From NCBI GenBank assembly GCA_030524675.1, contig JAUNGE010000004.1, positions 29,369 to 93,368 of the forward strand: a DNA stretch of 64,000 nucleotides, read 5' to 3'. Below the pieces are notes generated by a model that had not been told where the DNA came from, ran no database searches, and saw only the letters and a program-made list of their open reading frames with translations. Shown here one piece after another: positions 3,750 through 59,148 of the stretch. Each line of letters opens with the position of its first letter. Position 1 is the stretch's first letter. Made by a program: the position numbers and the translations under genes. This DNA is from a bacterium (GTDB lineage Bacteria > Bacillota > Clostridia > Lachnospirales > Lachnospiraceae).

Positions 3750-4010
3750 GATGTTGGGGTCAAAAGGTATTTTGACCCCTTTGATACCGGATTGCTCCGC
3801 ACTGTGTGCTCCCGCAAGGTCTACGCTCCGCTCCGGTCGGCGCCAAGCAGGCGTCACTGGCGCCTGGCGCCCTAAAAACATTCATAATTCGCTCATTTTT
3901 CTTTGAAAAATGGCTACTTATTCATGTTTTTGGCGGGTCCCAAAGTCAGAAATCCTCTTGAAAGCAAGCTTTCATCAGATTTCTGACCTTTTGACCCTGG
4001 TATCATATCA
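3750..4010. repeat. MITE-like structured intergenic repeat, copy A (261 bp, carries a 55-nt GC-rich insert at 3818-3872)
   Basis: Aligns end to end with 6543-6751. Left end GATGTTGGGGTCAAAAGGTATTTTGACCCC; right end CTGACCTTTTGACCCTGGTATCATATCA. Confidence 0.85.
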
Positions 4011-6542: not shown

Positions 6543-6751
6543 GATGTTGGGGTCAAAAGGTATTTTGACCCCTTTGATACCAGATTGCTCCGCACTGCGT
6601 GCTCTCACAATCTCAAAAACATTCATAATCCGCTCATTTTTCTTTGAAAAATGGCTACTTATTCATGTTTTTGGCGGGTCCCAAAGTCAAAAATCCTCTT
6701 GCAAGCAAGCTTGCATCGGATTTCTGACCTTTTGACCCTGGTATCATATCA
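6543..6751. repeat. MITE-like structured intergenic repeat, copy B (209 bp, reference copy)
   Basis: Imperfect terminal inverted repeats and four internal hairpins. Its right end overlaps the TGA stop of the GH42 gene (6749-6751). Confidence 0.85.
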
Positions 6752-29134: not shown

Positions 29135-29343
29135 GATGTTGAGGTCAAATATAAAATTTGACCTTTGATATCACGAATTGCTCCGTGCTTCGCACTCACG
29201 CAATTCTAAAACACGCCAAATCCGCTCATTTTTCTACGAAAAATGGCTACTTTTTGGTGTTTTGGCGGGTCAACTGGACAAAAATCCTCCTGCAAGCAAG
29301 CTTGCATCGGATTTTATGTCTATTTGACCCTGATATCTATACA
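29135..29343. repeat. MITE-like structured intergenic repeat, copy C (divergent, about 209 bp)
   Basis: Collinear with copy B, with many substitutions that preserve the hairpins (for example GAATTGC...GCAATTC and GTGC-TTC-GCAC). Confidence 0.8.
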
Positions 29344-56998: not shown

Positions 56999-57910
56999 TT
57001 ACTTCACAAAACTAAACTTCAGTTTTCCACTCTTCTTTCCATTCGGTTCCACGAAAAGCAGTCCAGACTCCTTCTGATATCCCTTTTGATACAGGTTAAA
57101 ACAGTCTGTAGAACAAGTCTGGTTTTCCACGCAGAAGAAATGATTTTTCGGAGTGAACACAACCACATGCGTGAAGTCCTTTGTCGCGTCAATCTCCACC
57201 GTAAACGCATCATAATACAGGCGAATGGGTTCCTTCTCATGATAATCTGTATAAACATGGTCCAAATCGAGAGATTCCACGGAAACCGGTTTTCTCAACT
57301 CCACACCCGTCTCCTCCATCGGAATCAGTTTTCCGGTAGGAATCTTTTCCTCCGTCATCTCCATGTAGGAATCCACCGGAACAGAAATCTTTACATCCTG
57401 TCCATTTTTTGTGAAAAACGGATGAATGGCAATGCCATACGGAAGTTCTTTTTCACTCTCCTTATTTTCCACCTCATATTCCCAGTTTAACACATTTTTG
57501 CGGATGGAAACGCGGATGCGTAAAACACTGTGAAATGGAAACATGAAAAATTCTTCCTGGCTCTCATCCCAGCGCAGGCTGCCCTCCAAAACCGCCTCAT
57601 TTTCCAGACAGAGCTCCTTCGTCACAGCAAACGGCAGGCGGCGCACCACGCCGTGCATTCTAGCGTCATATGCATCCTCGCCGATGTGGATTTTCAGACC
57701 ATCGCTGCGGTTCGGAGTTGGATAGAGAACCGGAACCCCATATGTTACTCCATTCTCAAATCGCGTATCGTCCCAAGCGATAATCTGCTGCCCCTCAAAC
57801 GCAATGCCATATACATTCATGCCATCCTCCGGACACACCCACGCCTCCATCTGCTCTCCAATCAATTTATAAATCTCTTTTCCCTTAAACTCACTTTTCT
57901 CGATTTTCAT
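56999..57910 (-). CDS. aldose 1-epimerase family protein
   Basis: Start moved to MKIEKSEFKGKEIYKL (ATG 57910) after AAAGGAGA. The upstream part of the 408-aa ORF runs through a repeat and the neighbouring gene. Confidence 0.75.
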   Translation of the reverse strand: MKIEKSEFKGKEIYKLIGEQMEAWVCPEDGMNVYGIAFEGQQIIAWDDTRFENGVTYGVPVLYPTPNRSDGLKIHIGEDAYDARMHGVVRRLPFAVTKELCLENEAVLEGSLRWDESQEEFFMFPFHSVLRIRVSIRKNVLNWEYEVENKESEKELPYGIAIHPFFTKNGQDVKISVPVDSYMEMTEEKIPTGKLIPMEETGVELRKPVSVESLDLDHVYTDYHEKEPIRLYYDAFTVEIDATKDFTHVVVFTPKNHFFCVENQTCSTDCFNLYQKGYQKESGLLFVEPNGKKSGKLKFSFVK

Positions 57911-59148
57911 GTATATTGTCTCCTTTGCAGTTTCCTTTCTTTCCATGATGTTGGGGTCAAAAATCCTCTTGCAAGCAAGCTTGCATCGGATTTCTGACCT
58001 TTTGACCCTGGTATCACCATATATTTCAGAATCGTCGCAAATGCCACCCGATACCCCATCTTCAGAGAATCTTTCCACACATACTCCTCTCGCGTGTGCG
58101 CACCATCTCCATAATATGTCCCATAGCATACGCTTGGGATACCAAGGGAAAGCGGGATATTGCAGTCTGTGGAACCAGAGTGGGCTCCCATCTGCTTTCC
58201 CGTGACTGCTTCCAAAAGCTGACATGCCTGCACGCTCAATGCCTCCTGTTTCTCTTCATCCACGCCGTTTCCGCAGGGACGCTCTCCCACCAGGATGACT
58301 TCAAGCTCCTCTCCCGCCGCTCTGTGAGCCTCAAAAATTCGCTCGAACTCCTCTTCCATCGCCTGCATGCCGCGGATATCGTCGGACCGATATTCACACA
58401 GCATATGTGCTTCCTGCGCGATTGTGTTGACCGAAGTTCCGCCCGCAATCGTTCCGACATTGTAGGTGGTCTTTCCATACGGCGGAACCGTGATTTTATA
58501 AATATCCGAAATCACGCCAGCCAGCAATGCAATCGCGTTGGTATTTCCAAAACGTGCATAGGAATGGCCGCCCTGCGCCCTCATCACAACCTCAAACCGT
58601 CTGGAACCGACTGCCCGATTTACGATTCCATTCATCGTTCCGTCCAGGCTGATGAACTGTTTGATTCTGCCCTTATAGTCCTCACAGATTTTCCTGGAAC
58701 CTTTCAGGTTTCCGAGTCCTTCCTCGCAGGAATTGCACACCAGCAAAAGTCCCCAGTCCTGTGACACCAGATGATTCTTCGCAATATATTTCGCACACAG
58801 CAAAAGCGCTGTCAGATTTGCCGTATCATCCCCAACGCCTGGGCAGTAAAGCTTTCCATCTTCCTCTTTCATCGGAAGCTCTGCCATATCCGGAAATACC
58901 ACATCCATATGTGCCATCACAACGGCAATCGGCTTCTCTTTCGTCACTCCGACCGGATACACCACATTTAAGACACTGTCTGTGTAGACGCCTTCTGCAC
59001 CGCACTGTACCAGAAAATCCCTGCAAAATTCCATGCGCTTTTCCTCTTTGCCCGACGGCGCCGGTATCTTTGCCAATGTCTTTAAGAGTTCATATGCCTC
59101 CTCCTCATGCTCTCTGATATATTGTTCCACCTGCTGTTCCAGTATCAT
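57907..59148 (-). CDS. M20-family metallopeptidase (ArgE/DapE/PepT-like) with a repeat-encoded C-terminal tail
   Basis: 413 aa with VMAHMDVV, PGVGDDTANL and CEEGLGNL. The last 36 codons (after ...ATILKYM) are read from repeat copy D and the former spacer. The stop overlaps the next gene's ATG (ATGA). Confidence 0.8.
   Translation of the reverse strand: MILEQQVEQYIREHEEEAYELLKTLAKIPAPSGKEEKRMEFCRDFLVQCGAEGVYTDSVLNVVYPVGVTKEKPIAVVMAHMDVVFPDMAELPMKEEDGKLYCPGVGDDTANLTALLLCAKYIAKNHLVSQDWGLLLVCNSCEEGLGNLKGSRKICEDYKGRIKQFISLDGTMNGIVNRAVGSRRFEVVMRAQGGHSYARFGNTNAIALLAGVISDIYKITVPPYGKTTYNVGTIAGGTSVNTIAQEAHMLCEYRSDDIRGMQAMEEEFERIFEAHRAAGEELEVILVGERPCGNGVDEEKQEALSVQACQLLEAVTGKQMGAHSGSTDCNIPLSLGIPSVCYGTYYGDGAHTREEYVWKDSLKMGYRVAFATILKYMVIPGSKGQKSDASLLARGFLTPTSWKERKLQRRQYT
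57947..58016. repeat. MITE-like repeat, copy D (70 bp, internal deletion keeping both ends)
   Basis: GATGTTGGGGTCAAAA is joined directly to ATCCTCTTGCAAGCAAGCTTGCATCGGATTTCTGACCTTTTGACCCTGGTATCA. The junction falls in the direct repeat GTCAAAA present at both sites of the full element. Confidence 0.8.

Follow-up and report, generated by a model that had tools for sequence, protein, structure and literature searches.

The stretch of DNA analysed here (the window, 64,000 nucleotides of a Lachnospiraceae bacterium; assembly GCA_030524675.1, contig JAUNGE010000004.1, positions 29,369 to 93,368 of the forward strand) contains an M20 peptidase gene that has lost its native stop codon. Its reading frame continues through a copy (copy D) of a miniature inverted-repeat transposable element (MITE) and on to the start of the following aldose 1-epimerase gene. 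The resulting C-terminal tail is most likely a recent strain-level by-product of MITE activity, and a two-step origin, i.e., insertion of the element behind the M20 stop codon followed later by deletion of that stop and reading of the frame through the element, is favored with a rough probability of 0.85. The features of the locus, in window positions, are as follows.

59148 to 57907, minus strand: M20 open reading frame (ORF), stretched version, 413 aa, ending in ...VAFATILKYM followed by VIPGSKGQKSDASLLARGFLTPTS, WKERKLQRRQYT and the stop.
58018 to 59148, minus strand: codons 1-377 (...ATILKYM) of the M20/M25/M40 metallohydrolase gene, its native part, as judged from Pfam, homologue alignment to residues 1-377 and AlphaFold2.
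58015 to 58017, minus strand: junction codon GTG (Val378) across the deletion scar; relatives have GCT (Ala) and then TAA or TAG.
57947 to 58015, plus strand: copy D, an internally deleted MITE (GATGTTGGGG...CCCTGGTATC) of 69 bp, read in the M20 frame as IPGSKGQKSDASLLARGFLTPTS.
57955 to 57999, minus strand: stable hairpin of the element, with a 12-bp lower and a 6-bp upper stem, inside the translated tail (RNA fold).
57940 to 57946, minus strand: 7-bp target duplication, copy on the epimerase side (ATGGAAA in gene sense), from comparison with sample ERR11553347.
57911 to 57939, minus strand: former M20-epimerase spacer, now codons ...ERKLQRRQYT; the corresponding spacers of the empty sites (L022 and L024) align with it.
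57924 to 57920, minus strand: epimerase Shine-Dalgarno (SD) sequence AGGAG, within the former spacer.
57907 to 57910, minus strand: ATGA (forward strand, tcat), in which the M20 stop TGA overlaps the epimerase start ATG.
56999 to 57910, minus strand: aldose 1-epimerase family gene, 303 aa (Pfam PF01263).

The catalytic and dimerisation domains of the M20 protein were both present (Pfam matches PF01546, E 2e-16, and PF07687, E 1e-9, ending at residue 374), and no NCBIfam equivalog was found for it at or above cut-off. The epimerase protein was identical in three other samples. In agreement with the first-pass annotation, which had been made from the sequence of the window alone, the ORF coordinates and the ATGA place the M20 frame within copy D and its end at the TGA overlapping the epimerase ATG. 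The overlap is in itself nothing special, because the epimerase starts with ATG AAA in every relative and a TGA in the +1 frame is thus always present. The public annotation of the M20 gene (P0121, window positions 57907-58965) gives a product of 352 aa (MVYPVG...) that starts 61 codons late and keeps the repeat-derived tail; the full-length start is conserved across all relatives.

The native end of the M20 gene was evident from its homologues. All 120 homologues listed were 373-407 aa long and aligned with the query, 91% of which was covered, only up to about residue 377. The nearest ones end in ...ATILKYMA and a stop (P0001 with 99% identity; P0002 and P0123-125 with about 95%), and those of same-genus species G001 and G002 end in ...LRYF and a stop at the corresponding position. 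When the last 109 residues of the protein were used to query a collection of 5.8 billion sequences, no match exceeded 67% query coverage, and the tail was thus seen in no other protein. Judged by these comparisons, the 36 residues after Met377 are not ancestral but foreign to the gene, since homologues cease to align near residue 377, relatives end in KYMA and a stop, and no other protein of that collection carries the tail. Exact look-ups of the 413-, 393- and 392-aa products gave no match, whereas the 387-aa partial product from Logan contig L028 did match; pattern scans for the junction in genome contigs and metagenome contigs also gave no match.

Three states of the locus were distinguished among close relatives. 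At the empty sites (L022 and L024, from relatives of about 95% identity), the M20 gene ends in ...AAA TAT ATG GCT followed by TAG or TAA, and a spacer of 33-35 nt containing AAAGGAGA leads to the epimerase ATG AAA. The intermediate state was seen in ERR11553347. One contig of this sample (L021) reads ...ATGGCTTAATTGAAA followed by GATACCAGGG..., i.e., ATG GCT TAA TTGAAA followed by GATACCAGGGTCGAAAGG..., and ends at the central palindrome of the element. The other (L025) starts in the palindrome, reads ...CAACATC followed by ATGGAAAGAAAGG... (ATGGAAA GAAAGG), and continues into an epimerase gene identical to that of the window. ERR11553347 thus has this mini element in an identical position, between target duplications ATTGAAA and ATGGAAA (6 of 7 positions equal), with the stop intact. 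Compared with ERR11553347, the present genome shows a 10-column gap and one substitution at the M20-side junction (alignment A1), where ATGG(C TTAATTGAAA)GATACC has become ATGG T GATACC. Only Ala378 and the stop were lost from the M20 gene, and the M20-side copy of the duplication was also removed.

The insertion alone did not destroy the terminus, because ERR11553347 keeps its TAA with the element at the same site; the earlier claim that arrival of the element had replaced the native end is therefore not supported, as the same insertion coexists there with an intact GCT TAA. By this allelic comparison the insertion preceded the loss and did no harm, and the stop was taken by a later deletion flush with the element terminus. 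In the first step, a non-coding MITE of the Clostridiales-1 family, internally deleted to 69 bp, entered the 33-35-nt M20-epimerase spacer directly behind the M20 stop, generating a 7-bp duplication that starts at the last A of TAA, a state kept by the 99%-identical strain. The second step, for which the sequence difference itself is directly visible, was a deletion of 10 nt together with one substitution in the lineage of the present genome, starting exactly at the element terminus and eliminating both the stop codon and the M20-side duplication copy. The flush position suggests that the adjacent deletion was transposase-related or that a nick at the terminus was wrongly repaired.

As a consequence, the M20 frame takes up 23 codons from the element and 12 from the duplication and spacer, passes across the epimerase ribosome-binding site and meets its first in-frame stop at the TGA inside the epimerase ATG-AAA. 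These codon numbers are those given (as approximate) in the first-pass annotation, and the spacer-derived part does align to the spacers of element-free relatives. Ribosomes would unwind the element hairpin and terminate on the epimerase start, an arrangement that may permit coupling of the two genes by termination and reinitiation.

Such a frame is readily available within the mini element. In gene sense, one frame has an in-frame TGA within the element (the flanking T and the first GA of the element also spell TGA in it), another, which is the one in use, is open and ends at the ATGA with the 36-residue tail, and the remaining one is open and in frame with the epimerase. About one in five random frames of 105 nt would be open by our own arithmetic. 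Read-through after loss of the stop is thus unremarkable, since two of the three element frames and about one in five random frames are open. The gene is predicted to encode an otherwise normal enzyme in which Val replaces Ala378 and a basic appendage of 35 residues follows. An AlphaFold2 model (42-sequence alignment) had a mean predicted local distance difference test (pLDDT) score of 88.9, with most core blocks above 90 and scores below 50 for tail residues 379-391, 396-406 and 408-413. The tail, which is basic and hydrophilic (calculated isoelectric point 11.05), is probably floppy or disordered in view of the model, and the effect of stop loss is probably neutral or mildly harmful.

The reality of the junction, which the first-pass annotation had left open to an assembly error, was assessed from other assemblies. 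The stop-less junction ...CTGAAATATATGGTGATACCAGGGTCAAAAGG... was found in identical form at contig ends in Logan assemblies SRR24915828 (L028) and ERR13998926 (L030), which come from different studies and both contain matching epimerase-side contigs. An assembly artefact is unlikely, because the stop-less junction recurs in these two assemblies. Three observations weigh against the two-step origin or its evidence. SRR24915828 or ERR13998926 may be the source of the present assembly, and the pair is accordingly taken to provide one independent confirmation at minimum; the exact junction requires a further change (C to T or A to T) besides the deletion, which was thus not one clean event; and the M20 gene differs from that of ERR11553347 by four nonsynonymous and no synonymous changes, compared with one and eight in glpK, so that selection may be relaxed or changed and not strictly neutral.

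Copy D belongs to an abundant repeat family. Its 47-nt core recurs at 6683-6729 with 3 mismatches (0 matches expected in shuffles), and a repeat search of the window joined it (57947-58015) to three further intervals (3750-4004, 6543-6745 and 29135-29337), which correspond to the following full copies.

3750 to 4004, plus strand: copy A, a full MITE of 255 bp; the gene that reads in from its right-hand side has its stop immediately ahead of the 7-bp duplication.
6543 to 6745, plus strand: copy B, a full MITE of 203 bp; the TGA of the neighbouring gene lies within the target duplication.
29135 to 29337, plus strand: full copy C of the MITE, diverged; Rfam RF01699 match.

In the whole genome, a draft of 127 contigs and 3.82 Mb to which all genome-wide counts refer, copies and fragments found by BLAST number well over 100, and 216 element termini were found at no more than 3 mismatches. 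Copy D and 42 paired copies carry the inverted ends GATGTTGGGGTCAAAAGG and GATACCAGGGTCAAAAGG (the latter the reverse complement of the right end), and 22-23 of the paired copies are flanked by a 7-bp target duplication with at most 1 mismatch (consensus ATAWNAT). The elements have no coding capacity and range from 36 to 263 bp, with main classes of about 204 and 256 bp. Most internally deleted derivatives (about 36-111 bp) retain both ends and the flanking duplication, which suggests that mobility needs very little besides the termini. Derivatives of about 36, 37, 45, 52, 70, 88 and 110 bp were noted on contigs C5, C46, C52, C116, C56, C28, C120, C96, C12 and C14.

Copies A, B and C match the Clostridiales-1 RNA of Rfam (RF01699) at 90.7-136.9 bits against a gathering score of 48; copy D, which is truncated and has only the first hairpin and both inverted ends left, gave no RF01699 hit. 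In Weinberg et al. (2010; PMC2864571) the Clostridiales-1 motif is listed as no more than a candidate RNA, from Clostridiales and human gut. Although copies A, B and C fit that model, the motif behaves here as a MITE, with inverted ends, target duplications, high copy number and empty sites. A search of this genome for a transposase-bearing parent showed that inverted termini 0.6-4 kb apart are chance pairs, which enclose ordinary genes only. The mobilising enzyme is thus either absent from this genome or has different ends, because no transposase-bearing element with these termini occurs in it.

Copy D (GATGTTGGGGTCAAAA joined to ATCCTCTTGC...GGTATC) corresponds to the full element minus the part between two GTCAAAA stretches, and the same 69-70-bp form occurs in three other copies of the genome (on C1, C25 and C76). 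This form is a subfamily trait unrelated to the change in the M20 gene, since it is shared by these three copies and by the stop-intact strain. The deletion between GTCAAAA repeats proposed earlier is thus correct as a description of the architecture and is not specific to this locus. The element hairpin lies in a 131-nt stretch (57900-58030) with a minimum free energy of -31.6 kcal/mol (z -2.83). It is not a canonical terminator, because no U-tract follows it in gene sense, and a terminator scan found none in the element in that sense. Logan contigs from four runs (L021, L025, L026, L027, L028 and L030) all break at the central palindrome of the element (GCAAGCTTGC), and repeat-bearing junctions are therefore systematically split in Logan and must be rejoined by hand.

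A preference of the element for the 3' ends of genes was also evident. At 32 of the 216 termini, an ORF of at least 150 aa reads towards the element and has its stop in the interval from 12 nt ahead of the terminus to 3 nt within it. A greedy gene set gives 29 of 216 (13.4%), compared with 2.1% of intergenic 7-mers as a whole and 1.3% of the intergenic sites that fit the target consensus, and when 20 clean copies were each conditioned on their own rebuilt intergenic gap, 4 cases were observed against 1.1 expected. The tendency is real and about five-fold, but it is no rule. Thus, the earlier claim that the element lands exactly at gene 3' ends holds for the tendency (29-32 of 216 termini against about 2% in controls) and fails for the exactness. 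The preference for the first dozen bases past a stop could be a property of the transposase or of selection on surviving insertions.

The stop mostly falls in the duplicated target, and six of the stops are TGA codons formed from a flanking T and the first two bases of the element. The TGA of copy B had been placed inside the element terminus; in fact the stops at copies A and B lie in or beside the duplicated target and not in the element, and rebuilding the empty site of copy B leaves the length of the ORF unchanged. By eye, only two other plausible genes gain codons, 4-5 each (on C56 a TatD-like ORF of 261 aa, on C64 a glycosidase-like one of 559 aa), most other ORFs seemingly extended into an element being spurious shadow ORFs. 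The 36-residue tail is thus the extreme case in this genome. The glycosidase-like ORF of C64 (minus strand, ending at terminus b=11201) has a further element copy in frame ahead of it, translated as LMIPGSKGQKSDASLLARGFL, and gains its 4 codons (MILG) from a second element copy at its 3' end. Annotators may expect repeat-derived C-terminal tails and repeat-derived stops beside Clostridiales-1 elements.

The M20 gene and its neighbours differ in their divergence from ERR11553347. The four nonsynonymous changes of M20 (window 58018-59148 compared with L021 and L025) are V59/A, A89/T, K159/E and R190/K, whereas the adjacent glpK segment has 8 synonymous changes and 1 nonsynonymous (Fisher p about 0.007, by hand), and the epimerase with 287 nt downstream has no differences. 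For three of the four M20 differences the 95% relatives have the residue of the nearest strain, which places these three changes in the present lineage; one of them, A59V, affects a column in which Ala is at least 90% conserved. The contrast points to a recombination boundary lying between glpK and M20, and selection on M20 may have changed as well. The changes in M20 could reflect relaxed constraint after gain of the tail, adaptation or the usual excess between close strains, and four are too few to decide. A further difference concerns the SD-ATG distance of the epimerase, which is 8 nt in ERR11553347 and 7 here and varies at empty sites as well (5, 7, 7 and 8 nt across strains). The intervening bases, in window 57911-57919 and at the corresponding place of L022, L024 and L025, form a small hypervariable patch (variants AGAATGT, AGAAT, GGTATATT and AATATAC) that differs in sequence and length in every strain seen. 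With the spacer of ERR11553347, an identical 10-nt deletion would give an M20-epimerase fusion.

Other origins of the junction fit these data poorly. That the true stop had been lost by sequencing error, or that M20 and epimerase had been misjoined through a collapsed repeat, could be entertained for a 127-contig draft with a repeat in more than 100 copies, particularly as same-genus species carry a MATE efflux gene between the two genes. Such an artefact is nevertheless very improbable, since the stop-less junction appears in Logan assemblies from two studies, adjacency of M20 and epimerase is native to the clade and seen in the 95% relatives (L022 and L024), no MATE orthologue is present elsewhere in the genome (best hit 51% identical), and the element is only 69 bp long; typical short reads are longer than this. 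Insertion of the element directly into the coding end, with removal of the terminus by its arrival, would be in keeping with a family that inserts at or within stop codons, forms a T+GA stop in 6 cases and adds 4-5 codons to at least two plausible genes. There is little to recommend it here, as the flanks of copy D (TTTCCAT and ACCATAT) do not form a duplication, and on the epimerase side the flank matches the stop-intact strain exactly, with the M20-side ATTGAAA of that strain agreeing with it at 6 of 7 positions, indicating that the insertion was shared and the stop lost later. An independent second insertion at ACCATAT was ruled out by the same identity of the epimerase-side flank.

Two further readings accept the deletion and differ as to its effect. 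Loss of the stop might have been adaptive, with translation through the hairpin coupling the epimerase to M20 and lifting a structural barrier posed by the MITE. The ATGA overlap is a classical layout for translational coupling, the hairpin is strong in gene sense, the allele occurs in at least two samples, the spacer is 1 nt off that of ERR11553347, in which the same deletion would fuse the genes, and M20 shows only nonsynonymous changes. Since the hairpin lacks a U-tract and is thus no terminator in gene sense, SD-ATG length varies in all strains including empty sites, the two samples may be one clone and four substitutions are too few to infer selection, adaptive stop loss is unlikely, and it is equally doubtful that the 1-nt-shorter SD-ATG spacer and the four M20 changes belong with a selected stop loss to one adaptive episode. 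Decay of M20, in which the tail harms folding or stability and the gene drifts towards a pseudogene, is a slim possibility raised by the contrast with glpK, the three lineage-specific changes and A59V in its conserved column. However, the ORF is intact over 377 codons with no invariant column changed, and glpK is an imperfect yardstick, as its segment resembles a recombination tract of its own (no synonymous change being present in M20, the epimerase or the DNA downstream). Inflated ratios of nonsynonymous to synonymous change (dN/dS) are, moreover, common between very close strains.

The two-step origin has a precedent in another bacterium. Many genes of Coxiella burnetii share their last 1-50 bp with a QMITE copy, and in strain Dugway an indel links enhC to QMITE2 with a gain of 33 residues, whereas RSA 493 retains a stop codon ahead of that element (Wachter et al., 2018; PMC5896051). 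The M20 locus resembles QMITE2-enhC in that a MITE lies directly behind the gene, a sister strain (here ERR11553347) has a stop before the element and an indel joins ORF to element in the other strain (here the present genome). It differs in phylum and MITE family and in that read-through spans the whole element and the next ribosome-binding site to the next start. The M20 tail is thus a fresh example of a phenomenon already described in other bacteria, with the QMITE2-enhC extension as its closest precedent; it comes from another phylum, involves the Clostridiales-1 element and is well documented by an allelic series at one locus, which leads from the empty site through insertion behind an intact stop to loss of that stop and translation of the element. 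A more distant analogue are the Rickettsia palindromic elements (attributed to Ogata et al., 2000, Science 290:347), reportedly short mobile palindromic repeats translated within host proteins; those are in frame inside genes and kept across species, whereas the element here is intergenic, became coding after a deletion and does so in one lineage. As in operons with ATGA coupling, the upstream ORF ends on the downstream start codon, although the overlap is secondary here, arising from stop loss 105 nt upstream. The allelic series illustrates how an abundant MITE of gut Clostridia, which is still listed as an orphan RNA motif, can remodel the ends of genes and the junctions of operons inside one species.

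Gene order around M20 was also compared with that of the same-genus species. Orthologues of two genes found there, a 257-260-aa gene and the MATE gene, were absent from the present genome (best MATE hit 51% identical). Deletion of a MATE gene between M20 and epimerase by recombination between two MITEs was considered and ruled out, because the 95% relatives adjoin both genes without an element. In G001 and G002 (L002 and L003), the extra 257-260-aa gene lies between glpK and M20 and the MATE gene between M20 and the next gene, which in G002 is the epimerase.

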